Source of the DNA: an uncultured Clostridia bacterium
GTDB taxonomy: Bacteria; Bacillota; Clostridia; Christensenellales; UBA1242
Length of the DNA stretch: 64,000 nt
Reading direction: 5' to 3'
NCBI GenBank assembly: GCA_944383375.1
Contig: CALWPG010000005.1
Span: forward strand, 24,982 to 88,981
Positions 24,115-46,415 of the stretch are shown piece after piece. The notes under the pieces are model-generated. The model was given only the letters and a program-made list of their open reading frames with translations. It made no database searches and had not been told where the DNA came from. The position numbers and the translations under genes are program-made. Position 1 is the stretch's first letter. Each line of letters begins with the position of its first letter.

Positions 24115-25920
24115 TTATGTGGAAGGAGTTATAATTTCGTAATCAGTTCCTCTATAAACTATATATTTTCCATCATATAACTCTTCATATCTTGATATAT
24201 TTTCAAAAGTAGTCACCTGTGAGCCCACTTCATATTGATTTGTCTGAGAATTTTTTTGTAAGACATACTTATACACATTATTGTCACGATTTATGTAAAC
24301 ATTTATGGTATTATCGCTTCGTTGATAGTAAGCTGTGGCATCAAATCCTTTTGCAATATCCACTTTGTAGCTACTGTTGTATTGAGGATAAAATGTATTC
24401 ATACAAGTGTCCTTATCCCATAAAATCGCGCCTCTATATGGTACACTTGTGTCTCCTATTTTAACATCATTATCTCTAACTAAAGCTCCTTGTCTAATGC
24501 TTGTCTGTAGTATATTTTGATTGTTGTATTTTAGAAAAAATTGACTATTGATTCCATCTCCAAGAAACCCAGCAACACCGGCATGGCTTACAAAAAACCA
24601 ACAGTCTGTGCCATAACCATAACCCCCAGCAATTGGCTCAATATGTGAAGTATTATGTCCAAATTGCTCATCCTGTACCCATTGAGAGTCACTTTTCTTT
24701 AAAGACAGAGGGTGACAATCACTATTGCCCTCAAGCCCAACAATCACAAACTGTGGAGAATAATTTGTATTAAAAGCAAGAGCCGAGCCATATTGCTGAG
24801 TCAAAGTTGGTGTAATGTAACAGGCAGCAATAGGAAGAGCCAAATCTGTGTTATTTATTGGCATAAGTGAATTATCTGCCAGGTTTAAACTATCTTTTGA
24901 TTGTACGTCATAAAATAGTTTAGTGTTTTCTGATCTTTTTAAAATGTAATATGCTTCATTAAAACAAATAATCCTAAGTGGCAGTTCTCTATCGACAATT
25001 TTAACGTCATAACCTTCAACTTTAACAGAGTATTCAAGCATTTCGCATGTCGCAGCAAATTTACATTTTATTGTGAAAAAATTAAATTTTTCAGATGGAT
25101 AAAATTGATAGGAGTCAGTATATTCAAAATTTCCATTAACGCCTCGTAAATATTTTTTATATTTTTGTATCAATTGAGAAGATGCAACATTTGAAGCATT
25201 TATATAAAGCTCTATGTATGGTTCTGTGTTATCCGTTGTTGTTACTTTACCCTTGACATGATAAGTAAGTACCACCGGAATTGTTGGATCACAATAAAAT
25301 TGACATCTTGGCATTTCATAAGTACCCGTTATTGGTCCATTTATGTATGAACAGAAGGTATCAACTCTGTTAACTTTTTGTGTTGGAGTTGTTGTTCCAC
25401 CTCCTGGTGATGATCCTCCAGAACTTGACTGAGACTCAAGTGAAGTTACACGACTTTCCAAAGAATCGTCCGCATCTTCAAGATCTTCAATTTGACCCAA
25501 AATTGAAGTGATGTTACTGTTGATTGATGTAATAGTAGTGCTTAATGAGGATAAATCATCTTCCAAATCACCAACATTTTGATTTAACTGAGAATAATTT
25601 GAAATATGACTTTGAAGTTGTTGTGAAATAGATGACAAACTCGAATTAATTGACGTGATGTCATCCTCAATATCTGTCACATCTTGACTGAGTTGCGAGT
25701 AATCTTGCAAATGGCTTTGAAGTTGCGAGCTATGAGTATCATATTCTGAGAGATGTTCAGTAAGTTGGGTCTGATAAGTGGTAATCAAGGTTTGTATTTG
25801 ATCGAGGCAGGATTTCATTGAAGTCATATAACCCTGAGTAGTAACCTGATTTGAAAGAGCTTTTATTCTTTTTTCAAGTTCCTCTATCTGTGTTTTTAAC
25901 TGGCTTAAAGTTGTTTCCAT
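24115..25920 (-). CDS. 601-aa protein: N-terminal coiled coil with internal repeats, G/S/T/P linker, about 420-aa beta-rich Cys-containing C-terminal domain
   Basis: RBS AAAGGAGACATT-ATG. Duplicated segment QLQSHLQDYSQLSQDVTDIEDDITSINSSL / QLQSHISNYSQLNQNVGDLEDDLSSLSTTI. Linker SSSGGSSPGGGTTTPT. No signal peptide. Function not recognisable. Confidence 0.75.
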   Translation of the reverse strand: METTLSQLKTQIEELEKRIKALSNQVTTQGYMTSMKSCLDQIQTLITTYQTQLTEHLSEYDTHSSQLQSHLQDYSQLSQDVTDIEDDITSINSSLSSISQQLQSHISNYSQLNQNVGDLEDDLSSLSTTITSINSNITSILGQIEDLEDADDSLESRVTSLESQSSSGGSSPGGGTTTPTQKVNRVDTFCSYINGPITGTYEMPRCQFYCDPTIPVVLTYHVKGKVTTTDNTEPYIELYINASNVASSQLIQKYKKYLRGVNGNFEYTDSYQFYPSEKFNFFTIKCKFAATCEMLEYSVKVEGYDVKIVDRELPLRIICFNEAYYILKRSENTKLFYDVQSKDSLNLADNSLMPINNTDLALPIAACYITPTLTQQYGSALAFNTNYSPQFVIVGLEGNSDCHPLSLKKSDSQWVQDEQFGHNTSHIEPIAGGYGYGTDCWFFVSHAGVAGFLGDGINSQFFLKYNNQNILQTSIRQGALVRDNDVKIGDTSVPYRGAILWDKDTCMNTFYPQYNSSYKVDIAKGFDATAYYQRSDNTINVYINRDNNVYKYVLQKNSQTNQYEVGSQVTTFENISRYEELYDGKYIVYRGTDYEIITPST

Positions 25921-30451: not shown

Positions 30452-30598
30452 ATGAAAAGAATACAAACATTAAACACACGTACACTTGTAAACCAAAACC
30501 TTTGTACAGCTGGATGTGGAGAATGCCAAACATCTTGTCAGTCAGCTTGCAAAACATCTTGTGGTGTAGCAAATCAAAAATGTGAGCATATAAACTAA
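30452..30598 (+). CDS. scfA: SCIFF (six-cysteines-in-forty-five) ranthipeptide precursor, 48 aa, below the ORF-track cutoff
   Basis: Hand translation: MKRIQTLNTRTLVNQNLCTAGCGECQTSCQSACKTSCGVANQKCEHIN*. The GCGECQTSCQSACKTSC core is the SCIFF family signature. AAGGAGAATAATC precedes the ATG. Confidence 0.85.
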   Translation: MKRIQTLNTRTLVNQNLCTAGCGECQTSCQSACKTSCGVANQKCEHIN

Positions 30599-30614
30599 AA
30601 AATGCTTGTTTTGT

Positions 30615-30660: not shown

Positions 30661-32034
30661 ATGATACACCAATATAAATTAAACGGTTACAATATCATTG
30701 TGGATGTATATTCAGGTAGCATACACGTAGTAGACGATGTCGCTTATGATGTTATCAATTTATATCAAAACCGCTCAAAAGATGAAATAATTCAGAATAT
30801 ACTATCGAAGTACAAAACTGATAAAACTGTTACAAAAGATAGCATACTAGAGCTTATGGATGATATTGAAACACTTAAGAAAAATAACCAACTCTTCACA
30901 GAAGACACCTTTTCTGATATGGCAACACAATATAAACAAAATTCAAATGTTATTAAAGCCTTGTGTTTACACGTGGCACACACCTGTAATCTTAACTGTG
31001 AATACTGTTTTGCAAGTCAAGGCAAATATCATGGAGAGCGTGCACTCATGAGTGAAGATGTTGGCAAGCGCGCTATAGATTTTTTAATTGAACATAGTGG
31101 ACAAAGACATAATCTAGAAGTGGATTTCTTTGGTGGAGAACCACTGATGAATCTTGATGTTGTTAAAAAAATAGTATCCTATGCTCGAAGTTTAGAAAAA
31201 AAATACGACAAGCACTTTAGATTCACTCTAACCACAAACGGAGTAAATCTAAATGATGATGTCATAGATTATTTAAATCAAGAAATGGACAATGTTGTCT
31301 TAAGCCTTGATGGCAGAAAAGAAGTTCATGATAGCACTCGAAAGACCATAACGGGAAAAGGCTCATACGATATCGTTGTTCCCAAGTTTTTAAATTTTGT
31401 TAAAAAACGTGGCGATAAAAGTTATTATATGCGCGGGACATTCACACACAATAATGTCGATTTTACCAATGATATTTTCCACATGGCTGATCTTGGATTT
31501 AGAGAACTTAGCATGGAACCAGTGGTTTGTTCACAAGACGAACCTTACGCACTAAATGATAAAGACTTGCCAAAACTTAAAGAGCAATATGAAATTTTAG
31601 CGAAAGAAATGCTAAAACGCGAAAAACAAGGTCGTGGATTTACATTTTATCATTACATGCTTGATCTAAAAAACGGGCCATGCATCTACAAGCGACTTAG
31701 TGGCTGTGGAAGTGGTACGGAATATATGGCAGTGACTCCATGGGGTGAACTTTATCCTTGCCATCAGTTTGTTGGAGACAAAAAATATAGTCTTGGAAAT
31801 ATTTATGATGGCATAAAAAATAAGGAACTGGTAGAAAAATTTAAAAATTCAAATATTTATACTCGTCCAAAATGCCAAGATTGTTGGGCCAAACTTTACT
31901 GTAGTGGAGGATGTTTTGCAAATGCCTACCATGCCACAGGCGACATAAATGGTGTTTACGACTATGGTTGTGAATTGTTCAAAAAACGAATAGAATGTGC
32001 AATAATGATGCAAGTGGCAAAAAACCAAAACTAA
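30661..32034 (+). CDS. scfB: SCIFF radical-SAM/SPASM thioether-forming maturase
   Basis: CNLNCEYC radical-SAM cluster motif, GGEPL, a C-terminal SPASM-type Cys clusters (CGSG...C, CQDCWAKLYCSGGC). Sits immediately downstream of the SCIFF peptide. Confidence 0.9.
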   Translation: MIHQYKLNGYNIIVDVYSGSIHVVDDVAYDVINLYQNRSKDEIIQNILSKYKTDKTVTKDSILELMDDIETLKKNNQLFTEDTFSDMATQYKQNSNVIKALCLHVAHTCNLNCEYCFASQGKYHGERALMSEDVGKRAIDFLIEHSGQRHNLEVDFFGGEPLMNLDVVKKIVSYARSLEKKYDKHFRFTLTTNGVNLNDDVIDYLNQEMDNVVLSLDGRKEVHDSTRKTITGKGSYDIVVPKFLNFVKKRGDKSYYMRGTFTHNNVDFTNDIFHMADLGFRELSMEPVVCSQDEPYALNDKDLPKLKEQYEILAKEMLKREKQGRGFTFYHYMLDLKNGPCIYKRLSGCGSGTEYMAVTPWGELYPCHQFVGDKKYSLGNIYDGIKNKELVEKFKNSNIYTRPKCQDCWAKLYCSGGCFANAYHATGDINGVYDYGCELFKKRIECAIMMQVAKNQN

Positions 32035-32881: not shown

Positions 32882-33946
32882 TTACTCACAAAGTATCTTA
32901 TTTATATTATATAAATTTTCTACACTGTAGTTTGTAAATGACAAAACTTTGGTGGCATAAGCATACAAAGTAGCATCATCTTTTGCATATGTTGATGGAT
33001 CAAAGTTTGCGCGCATAAATTCTCTAAAATTTATCTGCGACAAACTCGTCGAGAAGATCTGTTGATCATTTTGATACATATTGTAAATTCTTAAAAATTT
33101 ATCAAGCTCCTCTACAGTTGTAGTTCCTTCTTTAGAATAATCAAGTGAAGTGTATTGGTTTAATGTTTGGAAAAATTTATCCGTAGAAAGAGAAATATAA
33201 TCTCCATCAAATGCATTTAAATATTCTATTGCCGGTGTTATGGTAGCAATTACACTTTTTAAATTCGCCAAGTTCTTCTGATTTTTTAGCTGTGCATCAG
33301 TGAGAGTAATATAATTTCCATTTTCATCTTTAAATGTGTCAAAACTGGTATATATATAATTTTCGCAAATGGATATAAACATATTGTCAAGTTCAACTAT
33401 CTTTTGGCACAGATCAATAAGTTCACGTTTATATTCACGTAATTTTTGTAGTGATATGCTTCCAAATGCAGTCTGTTCGCTGGTGGTATCTATTCTTATA
33501 TCAAGTTCATGGACATTGGTAGAAAAATTATTTATTGAATTTGTAACATCATCTATTTGATTTTCGAAATCTAAATAATCTTGCTTCATCTCATCTGTAA
33601 CTTCATTTGGCAAAGTCAAGAGCACGCCATCAAAAGATGAAAGAAAATAAAATGAAGCAACAAAGATGGAATCATATACATCAAGAAGTTCAGTGTATCT
33701 AGAATTATTTTCATTATTAAAGGTTTGATCCTCAATTTTTGACAGTACCAAACTTACATTTTCTCCATACACAATACCATTTCTATAATTATTGTTAAGG
33801 CAAACATCGGTTATAAAAGTACTAAGCTTTGTATTAGTTTGAATATAAAATGTGTCATTTGAAGATTGGTCATCACAGCCAACAAAACAAAAACATAAAG
33901 AAACCAACAAGCATAGCGCGACCAAAATTTTTTTAAATTTTTGCAT
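32882..33946 (-). CDS. Lipoprotein, unknown function
   Basis: Signal peptide with lipobox MQKFKKILVALCLLVSLCFCFVGC-DDQ. The mature part is helical and rich in N/D/Y. Confidence 0.7.
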   Translation of the reverse strand: MQKFKKILVALCLLVSLCFCFVGCDDQSSNDTFYIQTNTKLSTFITDVCLNNNYRNGIVYGENVSLVLSKIEDQTFNNENNSRYTELLDVYDSIFVASFYFLSSFDGVLLTLPNEVTDEMKQDYLDFENQIDDVTNSINNFSTNVHELDIRIDTTSEQTAFGSISLQKLREYKRELIDLCQKIVELDNMFISICENYIYTSFDTFKDENGNYITLTDAQLKNQKNLANLKSVIATITPAIEYLNAFDGDYISLSTDKFFQTLNQYTSLDYSKEGTTTVEELDKFLRIYNMYQNDQQIFSTSLSQINFREFMRANFDPSTYAKDDATLYAYATKVLSFTNYSVENLYNINKILCE

Positions 33947-33961
33947 AACTACTCCCCTTTT

Positions 33962-34888
33962 CTATATTAGATAATACTGATTTTTCAAAATCAGTGCACT
34001 TTGACTTGCACCACCTTCAAGTGAACTTACATATTCATCAAAAGTTGCGTTTGCAAGGCTGTTAATTATCTCGTCAAAATTCAAGACATTGAAATTTGAA
34101 AGCAACTGATCATAACTATCAATATTCAAAACATATGTAGTGCTGTCACAAGCAATTGAATCTGAGAAGTTCTTTAAATCTTCAATTGAAACACTTGCCA
34201 CCTGATGATCAATGTCAGAACTTAGATAATTTTGACAAATCCTATTTGCCCAAAGATATAGTGACTTTAGATTGTATTTTGTAAGTGGATTGATGGCAAA
34301 ATTGTCAATTAAATAATTTTCTACAATATTTGAAACATATGAATAATATTCACCAAGATTTGATAAAAAGTTGGTGTAAATTGAATAATAATTGTTAACT
34401 CTTATAAAAAGTGCATCGTTATCTGGATAGTTTTGTATTGCAGAATTTGATAAATACTGGTCTATATATTGTTTGCAATCATCAATTTTTTGTGTAAGAT
34501 TATCTCTTGATTGACTTAAATTTTGCTGAATTTCAAGCATGTTTTCGTCTTTATCTTCTGTAAACAACAAATTATCTAGCAAAAATGTATTTTGAGAATT
34601 TAATACATCAACCAAGACTTCAAAATTTTGAAATGCTTGTTTGACACTTGAATAATTCTCACTTTCAACGCCGTCTAATCCACTTACGATCTGACTTATT
34701 CTTGAGTTTTCTTGCAAAATATAATTATAATCTTCATCGTAAACTAAAGAGTAGGTGTCATTATATGGCGCATTTAAATCAACGCGTGGTCTAAAAATAA
34801 GCACCAGTCCAACAATAAGAGCAATCAAAGCAATGACAGATATGCTTATGATGATAAACTTTTTATTGAAAAACCCCGATTTTGCCAT
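33962..34888 (-). CDS. Membrane-anchored (signal-anchor) extracytoplasmic protein, unknown function
   Basis: MAKSGFFNKKFIIISISVIALIALIVGLVLIF, then an N/Y/D/S-rich domain. ATG 9 nt after AGGAG. 15 nt upstream of the lipoprotein gene. Confidence 0.6.
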   Translation of the reverse strand: MAKSGFFNKKFIIISISVIALIALIVGLVLIFRPRVDLNAPYNDTYSLVYDEDYNYILQENSRISQIVSGLDGVESENYSSVKQAFQNFEVLVDVLNSQNTFLLDNLLFTEDKDENMLEIQQNLSQSRDNLTQKIDDCKQYIDQYLSNSAIQNYPDNDALFIRVNNYYSIYTNFLSNLGEYYSYVSNIVENYLIDNFAINPLTKYNLKSLYLWANRICQNYLSSDIDHQVASVSIEDLKNFSDSIACDSTTYVLNIDSYDQLLSNFNVLNFDEIINSLANATFDEYVSSLEGGASQSALILKNQYYLI

Positions 34889-35010
34889 TAGCACAATCTC
34901 CTTTTTTATTATGATAGCACAAATCCATCATAAAATCAACATTCAACTAAAAAATAAAGTTTTCCAATCTGAAATTACATTTATGCTAAACCTCATTGAA
35001 AAATTTGCAT

Positions 35011-35041
35011 AAAAAATCTCTCAAAATTGAGAGATTTTTTT
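35011..35041. terminator. Bidirectional rho-independent terminator
   Basis: AAAAAA, hairpin ATCTCTC-aaaatt-GAGAGAT, then TTTTTT, immediately after the stop of the AT-hook gene. Confidence 0.75.
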
Positions 35042-35046
35042 ACTTT

Positions 35047-37839
35047 TTATCTTCTACCACGTTTTTTCTTTTTGTCTTTCTTATCTGGAGTCTGTTCTTC
35101 GCTTTGTTGTTCTGTGTTCTCTAAATTTTCCGGTGTGGCAGACACTTGTTCCGGTTTTTCTTCTTTAACAACTGGTGTGGCACTTTTGTCCTTGTCGTCT
35201 TCAGGCTTCTCAGCTTGCTCACCTACATTTTGCTCATCCTGTTTATTTTCAAGATTTGCTTCGCCTACATTTTCAACATTTTGAGAACTTTCAGCAGCAT
35301 TATCCTTGATTTCTGCTTGAGGCTGTTCTATTAAATCAACATTTTCCTGTGCAGCCTTTTCCTGTTGTTCCTTGATTTGTTGAAGTGTTTCGCCAAGTTG
35401 TCTGTTGAGTTCATTTTGTTGTTCCATCAAACGGTTGCTTTCTTCCAAAATTTGGTTGCTAATAGCAGTTAATTCATCTTGTTTTCTTGGCCTGCCTCTC
35501 CTTTTTGGAGTAGTGCTTGTGGTTGTAACTTGTGGTGTCTTTCTTGGTCTACCACGTTTGCCTGTGGTTTTCTTTGCCGGTGTTGCAGTAGTTTTTCTTG
35601 GCCTACCACGTTTAGCCTGAGTCGTCTTTGGCTGGGTGGCAGTTGTCGTTGTCTTTCTAGGTCTGCCGCGTTTTCCTGCGGGTTTTTTCTCTATTTGAGC
35701 ATTGGAAGTATCTTTTCTAGGTCTACCACGTTTCTTTGGGGCCGGATTGATTTCTTCAGCAGTTTGCACGGTTTTTCTAGGTCTACCACGTTTGCCAGGT
35801 GTCTTCTTGGTTTCAGGTTTAGTTTCAGTTGTAGATTTTCTAGGTCTACCACGTTTCTTTGGTTGTTTGTTTTCTTCATTTGATACAACCTTTCTAGGTC
35901 TACCACGTTTTGCTTTTGGTTTTTCTTCCAATACAACATCAGTTTGTGGTTCACTGTCTTGAATTTTTAAGACATTGTCAACTTCTGCCTCAGAGTTTGA
36001 CTGTTCCTCTTTCTCTCCTTCAGGCAAACTTGGAGTTTCAACAACGTTGCCATCCTTGTCATATACAGTTCCGTCTAGTGCATGGTACAAACCTTTGTCA
36101 TCATAGTAAGTCCCATCTTCGTACCAGTAGTAACCATTTTCATCGTAAAAGCCTTGTGGCTTCTCTTCCACTTCTTGTTCAACTTGAGGTTGTTGTTCTT
36201 GTTGCTCAACTTCATCAGAAGCTTCTTGTGGCTGATCAGTTTGTTCTTGTTCAACCTTTTCTTCTTTAACTTCTTGCTCAGCTTCCTGAACTGGCACTTC
36301 AACACTCTCTATGTCAAGTTGATCATCAAGAACTTGGTCTTGATATTCTTCAGCTTTTTCTACCAATTCATCATTTTTCTCGTCAGGCTTTTCTTCTAAC
36401 TGTTGTTCATCCTCTGCCAGCACTTGCTCTTGATCTTCTGATTGTTCTTCTTTTTGGTGCAAAAGTTCTCTAAGATCCTCAATCACACCGTCTTTGATTG
36501 TGTTTATTTCTTTTGCCTTTTCAAGCTCTTTCAAAGCCTCAGTTCTTTGTTCTGCAAGCTCGTCGACTTCTTCTTTGTGCTTGCCTTGAACATCGCTTAA
36601 AATTGCCTTGTAAATTTTGGTTGAAAAAGTATCATATTCGCTGAGCATGGCTTTGGTTGCATATTGCTTTTTCTCTTCAAGCTCTGCTCTGAGCTTTTCA
36701 ATTTGTTCTTTAAGTGCATTAGTTTCTTGGTCGTAACGAACTGTTGCATCGTCCTGATCTTTTTCAAGTTGTTCTTGTTTTTTGATTTCGTCTTGTTGTT
36801 GTTTTCTTATGTAGTTGACTTCAATACGGTTGGTTGACTCCTCTTGTTGCTGACGAAGTCTTTCAATATTTTCTTTACTTGCTTGGAGTTTACGTTGATA
36901 GTCCTTTGAAGTGTTTTCATAATTTCTTTTTAAAGAGTCAATTTCGCTTTCAAATTGTTGAATTTGAGAAAGAATTCTTTGTCTGGTATTTAGATATATT
37001 TCAGACTCTTTCATGGCTCTATCCAAAATCAACGAGCCATCAATTCCTGCACTTTCAAAGTTATATTGCTCATGTTCAACAGCATTCTGTCTAGCACGCT
37101 CAAGTTCTTCTGCTTCTTGCCTTGCACGTTTTTCAAGATATTCATTGAGTACTGGAATTCCTCCACGAATTTCTTTTCTTGTAAACAATATTTCAAAGTC
37201 TACATATTTTGGAATAGTTGTTGATGCCTTGTCCACATATCTATTGAATAAGTGAAAATTCTGATATAAACTTGCAAGATTGAAATTTTGTGATGCCCTC
37301 AACAAAATTACAAAAATGACAGAAAGTAACAATATCAAAAGTGGAGTGATAAGAGAATTTGCAATGGTATCTATGCTGAGTGCAACACTGCCATAACTTA
37401 TCAAATTCATAACAAATGTCAAAAGTATTGTAACTGCACTTATACCAATAAAGTTTTTTATGTTTGAGGTATACCCACTGGTATGTAAAGGTTTTTCAAT
37501 GCAATTATACATGCTCATGTAATAGCTTGGCGCATGTTCGCGATAAAGCATGTATTGTTGCCAGTGATATCTTAGTAATTTTGGAGTTTTTTTGATAAGT
37601 CTATTGAATTCAACCAAGTTGGATTCATCGATCTGCTGATGGGCATAGAGCCATCTATTAAGTTTTTCCAAAGATCTTTCAAGCCTACCCTCATACGCAA
37701 AGCGTGATTTTAGCATAAAGAAAATCATCATGAGTGCAATAAAGCCAAGCGAAACATAGAATAACATGTTTCCACCAAGCCCGTCTTGAATGATCCTATA
37801 CAAAAAATCAGATACATTTTCAACGATAGTTAAAAGCAT
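35047..37839 (-). CDS. Membrane-anchored coiled-coil protein with eight RGRPRK AT-hook motifs
   Basis: 930 aa. Three hydrophobic segments in the first ~180 aa, with a K/R-rich loop between TM1 and TM2. A long E/K/Q coiled-coil region and an acidic region. Eight copies of [KG][KR]RGRPRK spaced 18-21 aa apart. Acidic tail ending in KKKKRGRR. Confidence 0.8.
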   Translation of the reverse strand: MLLTIVENVSDFLYRIIQDGLGGNMLFYVSLGFIALMMIFFMLKSRFAYEGRLERSLEKLNRWLYAHQQIDESNLVEFNRLIKKTPKLLRYHWQQYMLYREHAPSYYMSMYNCIEKPLHTSGYTSNIKNFIGISAVTILLTFVMNLISYGSVALSIDTIANSLITPLLILLLSVIFVILLRASQNFNLASLYQNFHLFNRYVDKASTTIPKYVDFEILFTRKEIRGGIPVLNEYLEKRARQEAEELERARQNAVEHEQYNFESAGIDGSLILDRAMKESEIYLNTRQRILSQIQQFESEIDSLKRNYENTSKDYQRKLQASKENIERLRQQQEESTNRIEVNYIRKQQQDEIKKQEQLEKDQDDATVRYDQETNALKEQIEKLRAELEEKKQYATKAMLSEYDTFSTKIYKAILSDVQGKHKEEVDELAEQRTEALKELEKAKEINTIKDGVIEDLRELLHQKEEQSEDQEQVLAEDEQQLEEKPDEKNDELVEKAEEYQDQVLDDQLDIESVEVPVQEAEQEVKEEKVEQEQTDQPQEASDEVEQQEQQPQVEQEVEEKPQGFYDENGYYWYEDGTYYDDKGLYHALDGTVYDKDGNVVETPSLPEGEKEEQSNSEAEVDNVLKIQDSEPQTDVVLEEKPKAKRGRPRKVVSNEENKQPKKRGRPRKSTTETKPETKKTPGKRGRPRKTVQTAEEINPAPKKRGRPRKDTSNAQIEKKPAGKRGRPRKTTTTATQPKTTQAKRGRPRKTTATPAKKTTGKRGRPRKTPQVTTTSTTPKRRGRPRKQDELTAISNQILEESNRLMEQQNELNRQLGETLQQIKEQQEKAAQENVDLIEQPQAEIKDNAAESSQNVENVGEANLENKQDEQNVGEQAEKPEDDKDKSATPVVKEEKPEQVSATPENLENTEQQSEEQTPDKKDKKKKRGRR
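35483..35915 (-). repeat. In-frame coding tandem repeat (~54-63-nt period) encoding the AT-hook array
   Basis: The plus strand shows TTTCT(A/T)GGTCTACCACGTTT eight times, starting near 35483, 35540, 35594, 35654, 35713, 35773, 35836 and 35891. Confidence 0.9.
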
Positions 37840-37987
37840 AATACTACCCCTTTTTTCTTACAATTTTCGAGTGTAGTATATCACATTATTTTTTTTTTAA
37901 CTAATATTTTACAATATTTTTTTTATTTTTTATGGAATTTATTGAATAATTTTTTTAATATTTTTTCGTATATTTTTAGACTGACTT

Positions 37988-40900
37988 TCATTTATGTGGT
38001 GTTATCTCAATTAGAGAAGCTTTTTTTAAACTTAAAATATAGCACTTTGAAACTTTTTTCATGAAGCCTTTTTCAATTGCTTTTTTATATAAATAAATCT
38101 GTTTATTATAGGATGATTTAAGTTGTTCATCATGTTTATTTGAAAATTTATAGTCAACAAGAATTGCTTCAACATCATTAAATAAAATCAAGTCACATAC
38201 ACCTTGTATCAACACCTCGTCTTTGTAGTCACTATCGCTAATTTCATTATATGGCAGTTTCATTACAAAACTGTGTTCTTTAATCACTTTGTAATTTTTT
38301 GCAATATTTTTTATTATATTTGCATTTTCGCAAACCAGTGCAATATCTATATTTTCAAGGAGATGTTCGTCATATATGCTCTGATTTTTTAAGTCTGATA
38401 TTATATTAGAAATTACATTTTCATTGATATCTTTTTCAAAATCAATACACTGTAGTATCTTGTGATAAATTATACCTTCATCAGTTGTCGGCTGGCTTTG
38501 GTTGTGCTCTGATATGCTGAGTTTGTTTGGCTGAAAATTTTGACTTGCATATTCGTATTCTTCTTTGAGTAACCCTGAGACAGTATTTTTCTGAGCAATT
38601 GAAGTTACGTCTTTTTGAGGATATTTTTTTTGAATATAATTTGCAAGCTCCTTGCAGTCAGAAGAAGATGTCGTCGCCAAAACTGTGTCGTTTTTGGGCT
38701 GACTTTTAAAACTATCGCTATTTATTACATTTAAAATAAATTTATCCTGTCCAAAAATATTACAACTTTTTTGCGAGTTTACACATATTATTGTTTTTTT
38801 GTCTAAACTTTTTATTATAAGATCAAGATACGATCTTTGTCTAAATACTTCATTATCATTAATAAATTGTTCATATTCCAATTTTTTGGTGGTACCAACG
38901 ATAAAAAGTTTGTTTTTGGCACGCGTTAGCGCAACATACAATAGTCTTAATTTTTCAGCAAAATCGTCATAAAAGTTGCTTTGTTTAATTACATCAAAAT
39001 AAATACTGTCATATTTTTTTCTTGCATCTTCGTCATAATATTTAATTCCAATGCCAAGATCTTCACTTAACATGAGTTTACTTGTTTTTGGTGAACGCAA
39101 TATATCTTGTCCCATGGAAACACAAAACACAATGGGCCATTCAAGTCCCTTGCTGGAATGCATGGTTGTAAGGGTTACACAATCATATGAGGAAACTTCA
39201 CTTGTAACTTTTAGATCTCGCGTACTTTGGTTTAAAAAACAAAGATACTTTCCGGCACTAAAATTGAACGATGAATCTATAAAAGAATTAATGTAACTTT
39301 GAATATTCTTTTTCCTTGATATTCCATTTTCCAAAAATGAAAGTTTGTAAAGATATTGCGTCTCGTTTACCAGCCAATTCAGTGCAAAGAAAAGACCTTT
39401 GAAAGTGTAATTTTGATAAAATGTTTGCAAAACATCCTTCATTTTTTCTATTTTTTGTTTTAATTCGTCACAAATATTATATTGCTCTACACATTCGTAA
39501 AAATATTTGTTATCGCCATTTTGTCTGATTCTCAACATTTCGTCGCTTGAAAAATCAAAAAGTGGTGACATCATGACACTTGACAACGCAATGTCATCAT
39601 TAAAATTTTCGCAAACTTTTATTGCATTTATAAGTACCTTGACATCATAAACTTCTTCCAAGTCCGTATTTGAATTTTCCAATAGAGGAATACCATACCT
39701 CTCAAACACTTCCACAAATTCTGACTGTTTAGCCCTAGTTCGAAATAGAACGCAAATGTCATTATATGTTATTTTTCTATAATTTTTGGTCTTAATGTCA
39801 TATATCTTTTCATCTAAAAGTTTAGTTATCTTTTCCGCTACTATCCTTGCCTCAACTTTTTCATTGGAAACATTGATGGAGTCATCGTTTAGAACGCTGT
39901 AAATTTTGTTTAAAACATGGTCCTCATCATCTTGACTATTGACAACGACATCTAGTTCGACATTATAATCCTCTTCCAAAAAATTTGCTTGTGCTACAAG
40001 TTTGGCATCATTTTTATAATCTAATCCCGCACTCTTTGTTGTCATGATTTTTGAAAAAATTTCATTGACAAAATTCAAAATAGGTTTACATGTTCTAAAA
40101 TTACAGTTTAAAAGCATGGCTTTTGACTTCCCAGTCAAAATGTCCTGTTTTTTATAATTTTCTATTATTCTTGCAAAAATTTTAGAGTTTGATTGTCTAA
40201 AGCCATAAATAGCTTGCTTTAAATCTCCCACTAAAAACAAATTATCATCTCGCGATATAAGGGAAACTATTTTTTCTTGCACTAAGTTTGCATCTTGAAA
40301 TTCGTCTATAAAAATTTTTTTATACTGATTTTTTAAATTATTTGCAATGTTTTCGTTTTCAAGCACTTTGATTGTAAGTCTTTCAACATCGTCAAAATCG
40401 TACATATTTTTTTGCTTTTTAAGTCTTGTGTACCTCGCTTTAAATTCATCGCACAGACTTAGTAAAACCTCAATATTTGACTTACAGAAAATAATGCTTT
40501 TTTTATACACCTCTTTACTTACATAACTTTTTAGACCATCCACAACTTCCTTTATGATGTCACGAGCATAGCACAAATCTACGATCAGTTCATCATCTCC
40601 ACTAGGCTTTTTAGGCATGGATAAACCAGCGCAGTAGTCAATAAGTTTTGAAAAGTCTTTGTTGTCTTTTATAAACATTGAAATTGCCATGAGCTCACTT
40701 GCAAATTTGCAATATTTTTCATTGCCCAATTTTTGGCTTTTGCCATGCAGTTTTTCAAGTAGAAAATTTGCATATGATAGTTTTGAATCAAAATATTGTT
40801 TGAGTATATTTTCTGCTTTTTGATTTTCAAAAAGATCTAGTGCATTTCGTTTAAAGTCATCATAATTTAAAATTGAACAACTGTAGTTATATATGCTGAG

Positions 40901-41413
40901 CACAAGGTCATAAATATTTTTGTCCGTTCTGTTGTCGGCAAAACAGTTGAATAGTTCAAAATATCTGTCTGGCTGTTTTGCTTTAAAGACATCTATGGTT
41001 TTTTTGAGTGCACGCTGTTGATATAATTTTTGACTAGCATTGTCAAGAATAGAAAATGATGGTGAAATATCTAAGACATAAAAATATTTTTTGACAATCT
41101 TTTGACAAAAACTATCAAAAGTAGATATGTCGGCAAGGGGGATGTCATCAATAAGTTCCATGAGGTCCTGTCTTGAAGTTGCCGCCTCACACAGTGCATT
41201 TGTCAACCTTTGCCGCATTTCGTGGCTGGCAAAATTTGTGTATGTAAGCACCAAGATATCTTTAATTTTCAAATCGTGGTTTAAAATGTAATCAATTATT
41301 TTTCTGATCATGACACTGGTTTTGCCACTGCCTGCGGAGGCAGAGACGACCAAATTTTTGTCATAACAGTTTATCACATCTTCTTGTTCTTGTATCTTTT
41401 CAAATTCACTCAT
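37988..41413 (-). CDS. addA: ATP-dependent helicase/nuclease subunit A (AddA/RexA)
   Basis: UvrD-type Walker A ASAGSGKTSVM, motif II FIDEFQDA, helicase motifs through VALTRAK, and a C-terminal PD-(D/E)xK nuclease (GVCDLILF...ILVDYKF). Confidence 0.9.
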   Translation of the reverse strand: MSEFEKIQEQEDVINCYDKNLVVSASAGSGKTSVMIRKIIDYILNHDLKIKDILVLTYTNFASHEMRQRLTNALCEAATSRQDLMELIDDIPLADISTFDSFCQKIVKKYFYVLDISPSFSILDNASQKLYQQRALKKTIDVFKAKQPDRYFELFNCFADNRTDKNIYDLVLSIYNYSCSILNYDDFKRNALDLFENQKAENILKQYFDSKLSYANFLLEKLHGKSQKLGNEKYCKFASELMAISMFIKDNKDFSKLIDYCAGLSMPKKPSGDDELIVDLCYARDIIKEVVDGLKSYVSKEVYKKSIIFCKSNIEVLLSLCDEFKARYTRLKKQKNMYDFDDVERLTIKVLENENIANNLKNQYKKIFIDEFQDANLVQEKIVSLISRDDNLFLVGDLKQAIYGFRQSNSKIFARIIENYKKQDILTGKSKAMLLNCNFRTCKPILNFVNEIFSKIMTTKSAGLDYKNDAKLVAQANFLEEDYNVELDVVVNSQDDEDHVLNKIYSVLNDDSINVSNEKVEARIVAEKITKLLDEKIYDIKTKNYRKITYNDICVLFRTRAKQSEFVEVFERYGIPLLENSNTDLEEVYDVKVLINAIKVCENFNDDIALSSVMMSPLFDFSSDEMLRIRQNGDNKYFYECVEQYNICDELKQKIEKMKDVLQTFYQNYTFKGLFFALNWLVNETQYLYKLSFLENGISRKKNIQSYINSFIDSSFNFSAGKYLCFLNQSTRDLKVTSEVSSYDCVTLTTMHSSKGLEWPIVFCVSMGQDILRSPKTSKLMLSEDLGIGIKYYDEDARKKYDSIYFDVIKQSNFYDDFAEKLRLLYVALTRAKNKLFIVGTTKKLEYEQFINDNEVFRQRSYLDLIIKSLDKKTIICVNSQKSCNIFGQDKFILNVINSDSFKSQPKNDTVLATTSSSDCKELANYIQKKYPQKDVTSIAQKNTVSGLLKEEYEYASQNFQPNKLSISEHNQSQPTTDEGIIYHKILQCIDFEKDINENVISNIISDLKNQSIYDEHLLENIDIALVCENANIIKNIAKNYKVIKEHSFVMKLPYNEISDSDYKDEVLIQGVCDLILFNDVEAILVDYKFSNKHDEQLKSSYNKQIYLYKKAIEKGFMKKVSKCYILSLKKASLIEITPHK

Positions 41414-44400
41414 ACTTCACCTCGAAGGTTTTAGCCTCAACACTGCCCATTTTTTTCCTAGATATATTTTCATCATGCCCACATACATCTTTGTAGGGAC
41501 AAAATTTACAACTATCATTTATAGGCGAAGGTTCGATGTTGCCTTTTATGATTTCATCCAGTGCCTGTTTTATTATTTTAACTGAATAATCCAGCATGCC
41601 CTTTAATTGATCTGTGGTAACCTTTTTTCTTGAAACAATGCTCTTTATATTGTTCTCGATATTTTTTTTGCTGGTTGAAAAGGCGACATCAAAAAGTCTA
41701 CTTTTATTTTCCTCTAATAAATTTTTGTCGGCAAGTTGACATAAAGCAGCATCATCTATAAAATAGCCACTTAGCTTGTAGTCATCAGTACCTTCCAAGG
41801 AAAAAGCACTCAAAATAGGCAGATAAAAAGCACCAAAAGGCTTTGCATCAAAAATTTCAGTGAGGGCTTTTAAATAGACATATACTTGAATTTTAGTTCC
41901 ATAATACAAGTTGTCGATTTTGGCATTGGAACCGGCAAGCGAACCTGTTTTGTAATCAATTACACGCAGGTATTTGTCATATTTATCCACACGATCCACA
42001 ATTCCGACTATGGAGTAATTTTCATTGTTCAAATTCACACAAAGTGAGTTATCAAACTTGTATTCTGTTTTAAAGATTTTAAAATCAGAACATTTTTGTT
42101 CATAGTTTAAGAAAGTTCCAAACCTTTTCACTTCATTTTTAAGAAGTTTGCACACAAAGGCATTTTCATCGTCTTTTAAAATACTGTATTTTTCACTATT
42201 GACAAGTTTTGAAAAACATTTCTCAATTTCCAAGCCCAAAGTTTTGTCGTCATAAGTTCCCAGTTTTTTACTTCCCATTCTCACAATTAAATTACAAAAA
42301 TCGTGTAAGAAATTACCAAAGTCGTTTGCTTTGATATCTCCATCCCTATTTTCGACCAACTTTAATCCATATGAGGCGAAATGTTTAAAAGGACAACTAA
42401 AATAATTTTCAATCTGTGTTATCTTTATTCGCTTGTCTTTGTCAATAAAGTTTGAACTTATATTGTTTTTATCTAGCACAGTGTACTCAACGTCCTCACC
42501 CAAAGTCAAAAGCGCAGATTTTATCTTTGCACCCGAACTATTTGCAGTCACACTTTCTCTTGCAACTTTGTTGTTTGGAGCATAAAACTTTAGGCTTTCA
42601 ACATTTGTACTTAGAGCAAAATCTTCTTTGGATAGTTTTTTTGCACCAAGTTTTTCAAAATCTGTAATAAAATTTGCAGCGACAACTTTTTTACCATCTT
42701 CACTTTGAAGTGGATATGTGATGGTGAGATATTTCGCGCAAAAGAAATCATCAAATATTTTAAACTTATTTCTGCGATTGATCATCTTGGCAGTTGGAGA
42801 TATCTTAATGCAGTTCTCAAGAGACTTTATGTCATTGTCCAGTATGAGGCTTTCATCACTCACCCTCTTCATGACATCCATTGTTGCACCAACTATGAAC
42901 ATATATTTCTTTTGTTCAAAAAAGCTTTTTTGTATATCTCCAACAAAAACGCAATCCAAAGAAAGAGGTATTTTATTTATTTTTAAAGAACCAATAGCGT
43001 TTAAATAGAAATCAGAAAAGTCGGCAAATGTTATACTTTGTTCTCCCAAAATTGCACAGACCTTGTCATTTAGTTTTTGTATTTTTTCAAATATTTGAAT
43101 ATATGTTTTTTCGTAGCCTAGATCAGCCATTTCTTTGAATTGTTGAGATACAATATCCAATTTATTTTGCACATCAAAATACTGAAAAATATTTTTTATA
43201 ATTTCTATAAAATGTCCAAATGTAGCATTATTTTCCAAATTATTTAAAAATTCAAAAATATATTTTATTTTTTCGTCATAATTATATATATTTTTTATTT
43301 TTTTGTATTCAATATTATTTTCTTTTATATATTTTATTACTTCATATTTTTTTGATTTTTCCAAACCAAAAAAATAGTTTGAAATTAAGCTTAAGATATT
43401 GTCCTTTTCGAAGCCAGAATTTTTTAATTCAAATACTGATTGCAAAAAATCATATATTGGGGTTTGATCAATAGCTATTGAATTGTCTATGTAAAAACTA
43501 ATGTCAAACTTTGTAAATACATTTTCAATCAATGGAAAATAACTTTCTTTTGAAGCCACCAAAATATTGCTATATTTTTCACCATGTTTGATTAAATAAG
43601 CAATCTGTTTTGCAACATTATCCACTTCATCGTACATTGTTGGCAACGCAATAAGAGGAGTGGATATACCTTTACTTTTTATGTCATAGCCAAACACATT
43701 TTCAAAAATGTATTCTCGGTCATCGTCAAACTTGCACTCTATGTCAATGACTTCATATTCAAGCTTTTTTTCTTTTAAAAAATCAAGTATGGTGTCCATC
43801 ATTTCAGTGTCGTAGAGTGCTTTGTTTTTGAATTTGCTTGCACGTATAACGCCTATACAAACATTTTTGACGACAGTGCAAATTTTCTTTACAATTTCAT
43901 AACCTTGTGCTGTGAAGCTGTCAAATCCACAAAAATAAAAATTTGTGTTTTGATACTGGGACGTATTGTCTATAAGTGATGAAAAAGTTTTGATTAAATT
44001 TGTGGCATCCAACCTAAAGCCAAGCAATTTTTCGTACTCACCAAGCACAATCTTTAAATCGCAAAGCTTTTGATTTAGTTCTTCATCATCAACGGTTACA
44101 TCCTGCAAAACCTCAAAATCAATTTTTGATGATCGCATGAGTGCGAGTGCATTTTTTATCTTTTCAAACAATCCATTGTTTAATGTTTTTGAAAAACAAA
44201 CAAATTTATCTTTCACATTTTGAATAGCGTGATACAGCACAAAGTCACTTTCTGTTTGATCGACAAATACACAATTGAGGTTGGCCTTTTCAATAAGCTT
44301 TCTCGCCAAGGCATTTATGCCCATGACTGAGATATTGAAGGTTGAAGAAATATTCAAGACGTCAAAAACCGACTTTTCAACAATGAGAGAAAAGCGGTCT

Positions 44401-44513
44401 GGAACAACAATTATATTTTCACAAGAAAAATCTTGCACAAAAGGCTTGATTTGAGCAATGACAGCATCTTTGACATCATTGATCAAATTACCCGTAATCA
44501 ACTTTATTGCCAT
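41406..44513 (-). CDS. addB: Helicase/nuclease subunit B, RexB-like (no Walker A), with Fe-S nuclease domain
   Basis: C-terminal nuclease motif GIVDRVD...VIDYKTG flanked by CPFKHF and CKFCPYKDVC (four-Cys cluster). 8-nt ATGAGTGA overlap with addA. The N-terminus reads ITGNLINDVKDAV where AddB of B. subtilis has GxxGxGKT. Confidence 0.85.
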   Translation of the reverse strand: MAIKLITGNLINDVKDAVIAQIKPFVQDFSCENIIVVPDRFSLIVEKSVFDVLNISSTFNISVMGINALARKLIEKANLNCVFVDQTESDFVLYHAIQNVKDKFVCFSKTLNNGLFEKIKNALALMRSSKIDFEVLQDVTVDDEELNQKLCDLKIVLGEYEKLLGFRLDATNLIKTFSSLIDNTSQYQNTNFYFCGFDSFTAQGYEIVKKICTVVKNVCIGVIRASKFKNKALYDTEMMDTILDFLKEKKLEYEVIDIECKFDDDREYIFENVFGYDIKSKGISTPLIALPTMYDEVDNVAKQIAYLIKHGEKYSNILVASKESYFPLIENVFTKFDISFYIDNSIAIDQTPIYDFLQSVFELKNSGFEKDNILSLISNYFFGLEKSKKYEVIKYIKENNIEYKKIKNIYNYDEKIKYIFEFLNNLENNATFGHFIEIIKNIFQYFDVQNKLDIVSQQFKEMADLGYEKTYIQIFEKIQKLNDKVCAILGEQSITFADFSDFYLNAIGSLKINKIPLSLDCVFVGDIQKSFFEQKKYMFIVGATMDVMKRVSDESLILDNDIKSLENCIKISPTAKMINRRNKFKIFDDFFCAKYLTITYPLQSEDGKKVVAANFITDFEKLGAKKLSKEDFALSTNVESLKFYAPNNKVARESVTANSSGAKIKSALLTLGEDVEYTVLDKNNISSNFIDKDKRIKITQIENYFSCPFKHFASYGLKLVENRDGDIKANDFGNFLHDFCNLIVRMGSKKLGTYDDKTLGLEIEKCFSKLVNSEKYSILKDDENAFVCKLLKNEVKRFGTFLNYEQKCSDFKIFKTEYKFDNSLCVNLNNENYSIVGIVDRVDKYDKYLRVIDYKTGSLAGSNAKIDNLYYGTKIQVYVYLKALTEIFDAKPFGAFYLPILSAFSLEGTDDYKLSGYFIDDAALCQLADKNLLEENKSRLFDVAFSTSKKNIENNIKSIVSRKKVTTDQLKGMLDYSVKIIKQALDEIIKGNIEPSPINDSCKFCPYKDVCGHDENISRKKMGSVEAKTFEVKYE

Positions 44514-44550: not shown

Positions 44551-45390
44551 TTAATTAGTGCTTATATTTTTCGATTTATATTTGTTAGCAAATTTTTTTA
44601 ATCCCTGCATTCTGCTTTGACTGCTGATAAGTTCGGCATTTTTACCACGAAGAAGCTTTAACTCCTCACAAAGTCGCTCATTTTCTTGCGATAACAATTT
44701 GAAGTTTTTTTGTAAAGCCTTGACCTCATTTTCCTTTTGCCTTAGATTGATCAATGTTTTTCTGAGCATTGCATTCGCCTTTTCTGTTTCAACCATAAAT
44801 TCTTTTGATGCCTCTTCACTAGCCTGTTTTTTCACCAACTTTACAAGTCCCAAAAATAGGCTATTGATGTCGCTTTCTGTAAGCCGCATCCTGTTGTTTT
44901 TAAAAGTTAGCACATTATTTGGTGTTTCCCTTTTAACAGAAACTCCCTCTTTTTGAAGTTCCTCAAGGCAACTTTCGTAGATCTCTTTTTGTTTTATGAC
45001 CACTGTTCTGAATTTATTTTGATACCTAACCATAAGTGATATATCTCCACCCGCAAGTTCAAGACAAGCTTTTCTGACAGAAATCCCCTTTGCATTTTTT
45101 TGTAAAATATTTTTCACAAGATCTTTGGTTTCTTGAAGCGAAAATTCCTTTTGGTCATTTTTTTCATGCTTTTTTATATCGATTCCCAACCTATTTCGCC
45201 TCTTCTCATCCTCTTGCAGAGCATCAAGCTCGATGTAGTAATAATTTCTAACACTATTTGGTTTACGATTGGTCATTGTGGCATAGTCAGCAAAAAGTTT
45301 TATGAGTGGTATGTTGTCCTTTTTACCCTCTTCAATAAACTTAAATAATTTGATTACCTCTTCGTCTTTCCATTTTGAATATATTCTCAT
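44551..45390 (-). CDS. Myb/SANT-like (RsfA-like) N-terminal domain protein with a C-terminal coiled coil
   Basis: Start set to MRIYSKWKDEEVIKLFKFIEEGKK...KPNSVRNYYYIEL behind AAAGGAGAG. The W-x2-EE ... R-N-Y pattern resembles Myb-like/RsfA domains. The C-terminus is heptad-rich. Domain call is tentative. Confidence 0.45.
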   Translation of the reverse strand: MRIYSKWKDEEVIKLFKFIEEGKKDNIPLIKLFADYATMTNRKPNSVRNYYYIELDALQEDEKRRNRLGIDIKKHEKNDQKEFSLQETKDLVKNILQKNAKGISVRKACLELAGGDISLMVRYQNKFRTVVIKQKEIYESCLEELQKEGVSVKRETPNNVLTFKNNRMRLTESDINSLFLGLVKLVKKQASEEASKEFMVETEKANAMLRKTLINLRQKENEVKALQKNFKLLSQENERLCEELKLLRGKNAELISSQSRMQGLKKFANKYKSKNISTN

Positions 45391-45494
45391 GATCTCTCCT
45401 TTGAGATAACTATTGACACAAATGCAAAAAATTAAACAATAAATAGGCAAACTTTTTTGTTTTGAAAAGGGAAAAACCCACATATACATACAAT

Positions 45495-46415
45495 ATGAAA
45501 AATATTAATATATACTCTGAATTTGAATTTTTGATTGAGGTTGATGGCAAGCGCTTGAATCTGATGCCGTCAAATCACATAGAGATTGACAATGCCTTGG
45601 ATAATGTAACTATAATGGCATATCCCCTGCAACAAAAAAGTTTATCAATTCCTTTTGCTTTTTCTCTTAGTAATACCCACCAAGATGTGGTGTGCAATAC
45701 AAAAAATGTCAAGGTGTATAATTTCAAAAATAGATGTGATGTATTTTTATCACCTTTTTTAATACCAAGCACCACTTGCCTTTACACCAATTCTCACACT
45801 ATAAAAAATACAAGATATTTAGTTTGCGTTTATGAGGATAGAGTAAAAATATCTTCAAATAAAGGAGAATACACACATCATATAATGTGCAAAGAAGGAC
45901 AAAGCGAAATAAATGGTTCAGATATATACATTTTGGTCAAAGATAGAAAAAAAACTCTATTGTGCTTTGATACAACAAATGCTACGTTTAAAAGTGTCAG
46001 TGGTGACAGAATAGATATATCCGATAATGAAATTGTTGTAGAGCAAAATGCCAACGACATGGCAAAACATGTTAACATATTAAAATTCAAACCCAACCTT
46101 GAAAAGTTAAAAACTGAAATTTACAAAGATGAAAATCGTGCCAGAACTTGTTCAAACCAAAATCTTATACCCTACAACTTTTTTGAATCAATTATGTGTC
46201 AAGACAAACAACAAGCTTTTTCAATGCTCTCTGATAATTTGCAAGATGCACTGAAAAATCAGGACATCTTTGAATTTTTTGGAGAATTTGATAAAATCAA
46301 TATCACATCACTAAACCCTTTGATTTACACTTTATATTCTAATGACATTGCCAAGGACTATAAAATTCAGGTTGTTGAAAACAAAATAACAGAAATTGAA
46401 GATGTTAATTCATAA
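45495..46415 (+). CDS. Hypothetical 306-aa protein
   Basis: Long ORF divergent from the Myb-like gene. No clear RBS for either candidate start (TTG 45462 or ATG 45495). No recognised domain. Confidence 0.45.
   Translation: MKNINIYSEFEFLIEVDGKRLNLMPSNHIEIDNALDNVTIMAYPLQQKSLSIPFAFSLSNTHQDVVCNTKNVKVYNFKNRCDVFLSPFLIPSTTCLYTNSHTIKNTRYLVCVYEDRVKISSNKGEYTHHIMCKEGQSEINGSDIYILVKDRKKTLLCFDTTNATFKSVSGDRIDISDNEIVVEQNANDMAKHVNILKFKPNLEKLKTEIYKDENRARTCSNQNLIPYNFFESIMCQDKQQAFSMLSDNLQDALKNQDIFEFFGEFDKINITSLNPLIYTLYSNDIAKDYKIQVVENKITEIEDVNS

Follow-up and report, generated by a model that had tools for sequence, protein, structure and literature searches.

Why would a bacterial gene for a membrane protein with an array of AT-hooks stand directly behind the genes for the AddAB helicase-nuclease? 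The question is raised by a 64,000-nucleotide (nt) stretch of contig CALWPG010000005.1 from an uncultured Clostridia bacterium, here called the window, whose numbering is used for all positions. On its minus strand, at 35047 to 37839 (-), the list of translated open reading frames (ORFs) contains a putative stator-like AT-hook membrane protein of 930 amino acids (aa), which we call X. A preliminary description of this DNA had recognized the ORF, which is real and of that length, but had not given its strand. We tentatively favor the reading that X is a stator-like, probably oligomeric membrane-to-DNA tether working with AddAB, which seems to us quite possible while still short of probable. The anatomy of X, the asymmetry of its charges, its pattern of conservation, its synteny, and its predicted fold are documented here; its oligomeric state, its DNA binding, and its link to AddAB we infer.

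The membrane domain and its predicted fold

The 5:2 stators power flagella, Ton and Tol transport, gliding motility, type 9 secretion, and Zorya defense, and it is to the A subunit, or wheel, of these ion-driven motors that structure prediction points for the N-terminal domain of X. AlphaFold2 (AF2) models of aa 1-470 and aa 1-270, built from family alignments only and without templates, both reached a mean predicted local distance difference test (pLDDT) score of 81, with predicted template modeling (pTM) scores of 0.43 and 0.64. When the two models were compared with the PDB by Foldseek, ZorA of the Zorya ZorAB complex came first for each (E values of 9.4e-4 and 3.6e-4; probability, 1.00; TM-score, 0.48-0.54), followed by a second ZorA and then by TolQ, ExbB, PomA, and MotA. 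For the model of aa 1-270, about 32 of the first 50 matches were A subunits of 5:2 motors (TolQ, ExbB, PomA, MotA, ZorA), and the best unrelated match had an E value of 0.33 and a probability of 0.2. The models thus predict that the first ~260 to 270 aa of X adopt the fold of such an A subunit, with ZorA as the closest match in shape. The three hydrophobic N-terminal helices noticed earlier are borne out by hydropathy peaks at about aa 25-45, 130-150, and 160-182, but they can no longer be regarded as a plain membrane anchor, because the prediction joins them with a very conserved loop and juxtamembrane region in a fold of the ZorA/TolQ/ExbB type.

Hydropathy, charge, and the AF2 models agree on the layout of an A subunit, in which a first transmembrane (TM) helix is followed by a large cytoplasmic domain and then by a TM2-TM3 hairpin. 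An acidic and poorly conserved N-terminal helix (aa 1-22; 37774 to 37839 (-); AF2 helix from residue 2 to 19 or 21) is predicted to lie outside the cytoplasm, with family means of 0.8 K+R and 2.7 D+E and an entropy of 2.2 bits. TM1 (aa 23-46; 37702 to 37773 (-)) is both a hydropathy peak and an AF2 helix spanning residues 23-46. It leads into a conserved K/R-rich cytoplasmic loop of five short helices (aa 47-121; 37477 to 37701 (-); pLDDT, 86-93; entropy, 0.98 bits), which by its position would correspond to the membrane-proximal cytoplasmic domain of ZorA and TolQ. Invariant residues in the first half of this loop are Y49, E50, N61, L64, N74, L75, F78, N79, P86, and W93, and those in the second half are Q95, L98, R100, P104, S105, Y107, S109, N112, P117, and S121. 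TM2 (aa 122-151, also the extent of the AF2 helix; 37387 to 37476 (-)) has a mid-membrane Thr/Ser at position 141, and TM3 (aa 156-182; 37294 to 37374 (-)), whose helix runs on into the cytoplasm (AF2 helix 156-208), has Pro166 and a polar or small residue at position 173. Among 48 sequences, position 141 is T or S in 38 (79%), position 166 is P or S in all 48, and position 173 is N, G, or S in 44 (92%).

Orientation in the membrane was addressed with a charge-asymmetry test over 48 homologs. Mean K+R counts are 0.8 in the N-terminal tail and 0.4 in the TM2-TM3 loop, compared with 3.3 and 2.8 in the two flanks of loop 1, and the TM1-TM2 loop of X itself has 14 K/R in 85 aa. This family-wide asymmetry argues for an N-out/C-in protein with the stalk and the hooks in the cytoplasm, and likeness in fold to the N-out/C-in stator subunits argues for the same topology. 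Charge asymmetry and predicted fold therefore both support the earlier proposal that the K/R-rich TM1-TM2 loop puts the C-terminal part in the cytoplasm.

The structure of ZorA has three TM helices, with TM1 facing lipid, a membrane-proximal cytoplasmic domain, and Thr147 and Ser184 in TM2 and TM3; its helical tail runs from near residue 223 into the cytoplasm and communicates with DNA-targeting effectors (PMC11946911). Like ZorA (PDB 8qyd, 8qyy, 8vvn), X has three TM helices, a large TM1-TM2 loop, a TM2-TM3 hairpin, and a cytoplasmic C-terminal helical tail, and its polar mid-TM positions 141 and 173 stand at residue numbers similar to those of T147 and S184. Both proteins are encoded beside a DNA-processing enzyme, the nuclease ZorD in one case and AddAB in the other (PMC11946911). 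Unlike ZorA, X has no ZorB partner nearby and no ZorC, ZorD, or ZorE, and sequence similarity to ZorA was detected only as two faint matches to PADLOC ZorA1 models, each in 1 of 23 members (E values of 0.016 and 0.044). The stalk of X, at ~200 aa, is shorter than the tail of ZorA (residues 223-729, ~500 aa); X also carries a DNA-binding-type tail of its own and is strongly conserved in a housekeeping context. The ZorAB complexes that have been characterized come from E. coli and Shewanella, whereas the hosts of X are Clostridia, which are taken as monoderm. Nor did we find signs of membership in Zorya, as neither X nor its three downstream neighbors have a PADLOC match and the 79 loci surveyed show a fixed locus rather than the patchy pattern of defense islands.

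TolQ, ExbB, MotA, and PomA (PF01618) share with X the predicted fold class and the N-out/C-in orientation. Unlike these proteins, X is far longer and ends in a DNA-binding-type C terminus, has no PF01618 match and a negative hhalign comparison with TolQ, lacks an adjacent B gene, and has TM helices less conserved than its cytoplasmic parts. To our knowledge, no 5:2 system lacks an adjacent gene for its B subunit, and a survey of stators describes the A-B operon structure as strongly conserved (PMC12505986). When the ORFs of 80 loci were clustered, down to a length of 50 aa, no adjacent B-subunit gene came up, and the Pfam lists of neighboring genes held no MotB, OmpA, or ExbD domain; these searches covered gene neighborhoods only, and a distant gene is possible. 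Three sets of neighbors were considered as B subunits and rejected: a 295-aa lipoprotein with a C-terminal TM helix, present in 19 loci, has no aspartate in that helix, the 310-aa and 354-aa envelope proteins of the window have none in any TM helix, and the PRC-barrel-like neighbors of distant members have no hydrophobic segment. As X has neither a sequence-profile match nor an adjacent B gene, we do not call it a member of the 5:2 motor family, and with no B subunit encoded nearby its stator-like domain is read as an anchor and assembly platform instead of a working motor. X is accordingly filed as a protein with a predicted stator-like fold, not as a demonstrated motor subunit.

The protein family, the stalk, and the basic tail

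X belongs to a large, unnamed family whose N-terminal domain and stalk have no Pfam or NCBIfam model and no description in the literature. At least 529 homologs are present in a collection of 5.8 billion proteins, the best 120 of them at E < 1e-160; none is informatively named, and the few that are labeled come from Clostridia/Clostridiales metagenome genomes. A protein identical to X occurs on 11 metagenome contigs. A profile of aa 1-270 retrieved 331 representatives at 50% identity (162 of them at E < 1e-30), and the best 150 matches listed in this deep representative search were all clear family members. Scanning one genome per GTDB species gave 79 loci of 23-41% GC, nearly all from uncultured bacteria of Clostridia/Christensenellales type. 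One member, at 54% identity, comes from a 1.6-kb contig (L061, NWBO01000055.1) assigned to "Bacteroidales bacterium Phil12", probably through a binning error rather than as a true occurrence outside the Clostridia. The earlier statement that no named family matches X by sequence stands after searches with Pfam, NCBIfam, and PADLOC, which found no credible family for the N-terminal domain or the stalk in X, its subregions, or 23 members; YqiJ_N, LPG_synthase_TM, and DUF2207_C were dismissed as below their cutoffs and inconsistent between members, and full-text searching of the literature brought up no account of such a protein. With at least 79 GTDB species-representative genomes and 331 clusters, the family deserves a definition at least.

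Conservation in this family is strong and unevenly placed. Over the same 60 loci, mean identity is 60% for X aa 1-470, 38% for AddA, and 35% for AddB, and in every one of the 60 the identity of X aa 1-470 exceeds that of AddA. Within the N-terminal domain, entropy is ~2 bits in TM2 and TM3 versus 0.8-1.0 in the cytoplasmic parts. Beyond TM3, AF2 places helices from residue 183 to residue 469 (231-255, 268-334, and 338-469 after the TM3 helix), with a hydrophobic/amphipathic periodicity of 3.5-3.7 and an E/K/Q-rich composition from ~aa 260 to 470. The juxtamembrane domain and first part of this stalk (aa 183-410; 36610 to 37293 (-)) form the most conserved segment in the alignment, with dozens of invariant and mostly polar residues, as in ERLRxQQEESTNRIExNYIxKQQ, and a mean identity over 60 loci of 71% for aa 186-410. 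The distal stalk (aa 411-469; 36433 to 36609 (-)), helical in the AF2 model to residue 469, is less conserved (entropy, 2.3 bits). The preliminary description had seen here about 250 aa of E/K/Q coiled coil leading to the hooks; a helical E/K/Q-rich region is indeed present, but its proximal part, as the most conserved segment of X, is not a mere spacer.

The hooks themselves occupy aa 641-790 (35470 to 35919 (-)), a segment of net charge +43 in which a motif scan and Pfam locate eight copies of [KGA][KR]RGRPRK joined by T/P/K-rich linkers. RGRPRK occurs at aa 645, 663, 684, 704, 724, 744, 762, and 781, with spacings of 18, 21, 20, 20, 20, 18, and 19 aa; the composition of X alone would lead one to expect 0.006 RGRP motifs. 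That these are canonical AT-hooks, as first proposed, is upheld by Pfam, where AT_hook (PF02178) scores 33.4 bits against a cutoff of 17.4 and is the sole domain found in X. The hook cores have most of their codons in common, with some synonymous differences, the linkers have diverged, and Tandem Repeats Finder reported for the region a single 54-nt pair that is 80% alike. Diverged linkers and synonymous changes in the cores argue against a fresh tandem duplication and for an old array whose cores are under selection, and across the family alignment drifting linkers separate nearly invariant GRP cores.

The combination of TM domain and hooks is conserved among close relatives, a check that had been proposed at the outset. 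At least two GRP hooks are present in 113 of 116 full-length close homologs (median, 7; maximum, 13), and close homologs without RGRP carry VGRPKK or AGRPRK instead. Loss of the repeats from orthologs had been named in advance as a sign of low-complexity drift; with the architecture conserved in this way, that objection fails. In the broader family, GRP is absent from 56 of 103 full-length representatives. Of these 56, 39 have a strongly basic segment (net charge of at least +8 in a 60-aa window) in the same place, and the tails of some hook-less relatives have histone-H1-like AKKPAAKK repeats (P0147, P0173, P0226, P0242) or Arg-rich patches (P0143, P0164, P0209). This recurrence of basic tails in other forms suggests selection on a polycationic tail of DNA-binding type, a trait that is the more widely shared one, with the AT-hook array as the version found in the lineage of the window. 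Hook number was not correlated with the GC content of the locus (Spearman 0.17, p = 0.21), in a test of low power since all loci are AT-rich.

Acidic stretches lie on both sides of the basic region. A variable E/Q/D-rich linker (aa 470-562; 36154 to 36432 (-)), delimited from alignment and composition, has a net charge of -30, a second acidic spacer (aa 601-640) has -10, and a variable acidic tail (aa 831-930; 35050 to 35349 (-)), absent or short in most homologs, ends in KKDKKKKRGRR; the acidic spacers and the KKKKRGRR end were thus described correctly from the outset. Several basic-flanked RGRP hooks followed by an acidic tail are also the anatomy of HMGA and of Myxococcus CarD, and the acidic segments of X could modulate the predicted DNA binding. 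HMGA is small and soluble and has three hooks; X, in contrast, has eight on a 930-aa membrane protein and no homology to it outside the motif. The H1-like lysine-rich tails of Hc1 and mycobacterial HupB find their counterpart in the AKKPAAKK-type repeats of the hook-less relatives, whereas X has AT-hooks; this parallel speaks only for a polycationic tail as the trait under selection.

Linkage to addAB and the proposed role

The link to AddAB comes from gene order. In the window, addA (1,141 aa; 37988 to 41413 (-); TIGR02785 at 600 bits, UvrD-helicase and PDDEXK domains) lies directly upstream of X and is itself preceded by addB (1,035 aa; 41406 to 44513 (-); ADDB_N and PDDEXK_1, TIGR02773), which overlaps the start of addA by 8 nt, so that the placement of X immediately downstream of addAB was correctly recognized. 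In a tblastn search of the window's neighbors against 79 loci and in the clustering of ORFs in 80 loci, 68 of 78 genome loci have addA directly upstream of X, a placement kept down to an AddA identity of only 28%, and addB is conserved in 57-58; the median gap between addA and X is 137 nt in the ORF clustering. AddA is also directly upstream in all six of the most distant, hook-less members that were looked up, and in one locus (L083) the stop codon of addA and the start of X overlap by 4 nt, which suggests translational coupling. Apart from AddA and AddB, no neighbor is shared by more than 30 of the 80 loci. Far from incidental, adjacency to addA is the most persistent feature of the family.

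AddAB is the main double-strand-break processing enzyme of Firmicutes. In the role that we propose, the stator-like domain would serve in the cytoplasmic membrane as anchor and assembly platform, and the conserved helical stalk of ~200 residues would project into the cytoplasm, followed by flexible acidic linkers and the basic tail with its eight hooks. X is probably oligomeric, by analogy with ZorA, TolQ, and ExbB; as a pentamer it would have ~40 hooks, which may give a high-avidity and largely sequence-independent grip on AT-rich DNA and hold that DNA at the membrane. Since the gene keeps its place behind addB-addA throughout the family, the DNA handled is most likely the AddAB substrate, double-stranded DNA ends. 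Such ends could arise from chromosome breaks and be retained for resection and repair, or could belong to linear DNA that comes in through the membrane and is presented for degradation. A partner plausibly docks on the highly conserved polar stalk. Noc and RacA/DivIVA of Bacillus fill the same role of holding DNA at the membrane, Noc being membrane-bound through an amphipathic helix and RacA through DivIVA; unlike them, X is an integral membrane protein with low-complexity hook motifs and a link to addAB, and Pfam finds in it no ParB or helix-turn-helix domain.

What would be new in X is a scaffold of predicted ZorA/TolQ type that lacks an adjacent B gene, is fused to a DNA-binding-type tail, and is tied to AddAB. 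Should this hold, it would reveal a hidden membrane-associated step in the processing of DNA ends or in defense against incoming DNA; the stator scaffold would have gained a further use, and a large bacterial AT-hook array would for the first time be placed in a defined cellular context. A bolder version, which we consider quite unlikely, makes a ZorA-like pentamer of X the wheel of a rotary or force-transmitting membrane machine that grips DNA with its ~40 AT-hooks and hands the ends to AddAB, with the B subunit encoded elsewhere or some other form of gating; if true, it would couple an ion gradient or the state of the envelope mechanically to DNA repair or to the destruction of incoming DNA, order-wide in gut Clostridia.

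Several results count against a stator-like tether that works with AddAB. The likeness in fold is modest (TM-score of about 0.5) and comes from monomer predictions. PF01618 (MotA_ExbB) is not matched by 23 members at E values up to 5, full-length X has no PADLOC or NCBIfam match for the N-terminal domain, sequence-profile searches of the PDB gave only chance matches (coiled coils, RNA polymerase omega), and hhalign of the family's N-terminal domain against TolQ returned a probability of 0.4% with a shallow TolQ profile (82-100% identity). In a phmmer control, TolQ itself misses ZorA altogether and reaches MotA only at an E value of about 0.06, so these sequence-level negatives for the N-terminal domain are weak. 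Four loci (L020, L023, L026, L034) lack addAB despite ample upstream sequence, and among the 10 loci without AddA only 4 have enough of it to show absence; the conserved adjacency could also reflect shared ancestry in part. X has a promoter-like site and a terminator of its own and lies 148 nt from addA in the window, so cotranscription of the two genes is only a possibility there. Neither the Tyr-rich repeats of X nor the invariance of its polar stalk residues is accounted for by this reading.

With no mechanistic tie to AddAB, X could be, much as first proposed, a general nucleoid-to-membrane tether or a factor in chromosome organization, segregation, or division that would bind AT-rich chromosomal DNA constantly, its adjacency to addA being historical or regulatory. 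Multivalent AT-hooks in very AT-rich genomes suit such a role, strong purifying selection and a housekeeping neighborhood fit a core task in cell biology, and both the promoter-like site and terminator of X and the four loci with no addAB upstream speak for it. It leaves the linkage to AddAB unexplained, however: the adjacency is family-wide and extends to 28% AddA identity while other neighbors turn over, a selectivity not expected of pure history, and one lineage (L083) has overlapping stop and start codons. We regard this as an unlikely explanation, though one to be taken seriously. A second way to accommodate AddAB begins from the degradation of unprotected linear DNA by AddAB/RecBCD and from the position of X, with ZorA as its best structural match, beside a helicase-nuclease. 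In a Zorya-like barrier, the stator-like domain would sense perturbation of the envelope where a phage injects or DNA enters, the tail would capture the entering linear DNA, and AddAB would degrade it in place of ZorC and ZorD; for ZorA, it has been proposed that the cytoplasmic tail brings DNA-binding ZorC and the ZorD nuclease to the membrane during infection (PMC11946911). Such a barrier is improbable given that no ZorB-like subunit is encoded nearby, no PADLOC match was obtained for full-length X or three downstream neighbors, and the locus holds no defense island; unlike typical defense genes, X is found across the sampled clade with conservation well above that of AddA, and AddAB here appears to be an ordinary housekeeping enzyme.

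In working stators, the helices that line the channel generally belong to the best-conserved regions, whereas TM2 and TM3 of X are among the least conserved parts of its N-terminal domain (~2 bits versus 0.8-1.0). This, together with the missing PF01618 match, makes it very improbable that X is a true A subunit of an ion-driven 5:2 motor, its B subunit encoded elsewhere and its rotating stalk moving, twisting, or reeling DNA through the hooks, even if the stator-type predicted fold, the long and conserved stalk, and polar mid-membrane positions 141, 166, and 173, which recall ZorA Thr147 and Ser184, favor it. The lack of an adjacent B gene in 80 loci also runs against the normal A-B operon (PMC12505986). 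Finally, hook number varies from 0 to 13, as it might if the repeats were nonfunctional low-complexity sequence, or the C-terminal region could be extracellular and bind extracellular DNA or the cell wall, since surface proteins often contain YD-like Tyr-rich repeats and linkers rich in T and P. We find either scarcely credible: charge asymmetry in 48 sequences and the stator-like fold place the C terminus inside, a 750-aa tail with a +43 segment is an unlikely substrate for export, GRP cores stay nearly invariant while linkers drift, and basic tails recur in unrelated forms.

Expression signals, further features, and neighboring genes

X starts at an ATG at 37839, preceded by a GGGG ribosome-binding motif (37850 to 37847), and ends with a stop codon at 35047 to 35049. 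Just past the stop, a sequence scan found a terminator-like palindrome with a 13-bp hairpin and T-runs on both strands (35011 to 35040), and 148 nt (37840 to 37987) separate X from addA, so the terminator and the distance first reported are both accurate. Promoter-like elements in this gap (37875 to 37914 (-)), taken from a consensus scan and from reading the sequence and representing consensus matches only, comprise a putative -35/-10 pair (TTGTAA, 18 nt, AATAAT; 37914 to 37885) and a putative extended -10 element (TGaTATACT; 37883 to 37875). No SOS (LexA) box of the form GAAC-N4-GTTC was seen on reading the gap.

Two further conserved elements flank the hooks. Between the first two acidic segments lies a Tyr/Gly/Asp-rich motif, GxYDxxGYYxYxNGTYYDxxGxYHDxxGxxYDxxGN (aa 563-600; 36040 to 36153 (-)), whose G, Y, and D columns are nearly invariant. 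Hairpin-like YYDxxG repeats of this kind, in 1 to 8 copies, occur across the family (relatives include P0123, P0179, and P0207); they have no Pfam match and resemble YD or cell-wall-binding repeats, though they are predicted to be cytoplasmic. Directly after the hooks, an amphipathic helix, DELxxIxxQIxEExxxLxxQQxELxxQLxxTL (aa 791-830; 35350 to 35469 (-); alignment columns 1719-1760), is conserved family-wide, hook-less members included (P0143, P0164, P0205, P0139, P0173).

The genes surrounding X are of housekeeping type (TilS, MnmA, a RelA/SpoT-like protein, and SCIFF with its maturase) and form no defense island. After AddAB, the most persistent neighbors are a 312-aa protein (44551 to 45489 (-)) and a divergently encoded 317-aa protein (45462 to 46415 (+)) upstream of addB, conserved in 30 and 26 of 80 loci, respectively, and without a Pfam family. 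The lipoprotein of ~295 aa with a C-terminal TM helix adjoins the X-family gene in 19 loci (e.g., L034, 8956 to 9843), ~100 nt downstream in 15 of them and upstream and divergent in the four loci without addAB (L020, L023, L026, L034). Just downstream of X in the window (32882 to 34894 (-)), two envelope proteins, one of 310 aa with an N-terminal TM anchor and one a 354-aa lipoprotein with the lipobox FVGC, are conserved only in the six closest loci and have no Pfam, NCBIfam, or PADLOC match.

Distant hook-less relatives show a second small conserved neighborhood, in which the X-family gene is followed by an opposite-strand PRC-barrel-like gene and a Band_7_1 (SPFH/flotillin-like) gene (L083, 10177 to 13073; L086, 10271 to 12208; L090, 5060 to 7560), with DUF1858 following in L083 and L090. 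Farther along the window, a SCIFF peptide gene (~30453 to 30599 (+)) precedes a radical-SAM/SPASM maturase (30661 to 32034 (+)), both labeled from identical metagenome contigs, a pairing typical of Clostridia. A 601-aa protein with an AAA_13 domain and faint coiled-coil-type matches is encoded ~9 kb downstream of X (24115 to 25920 (-)).

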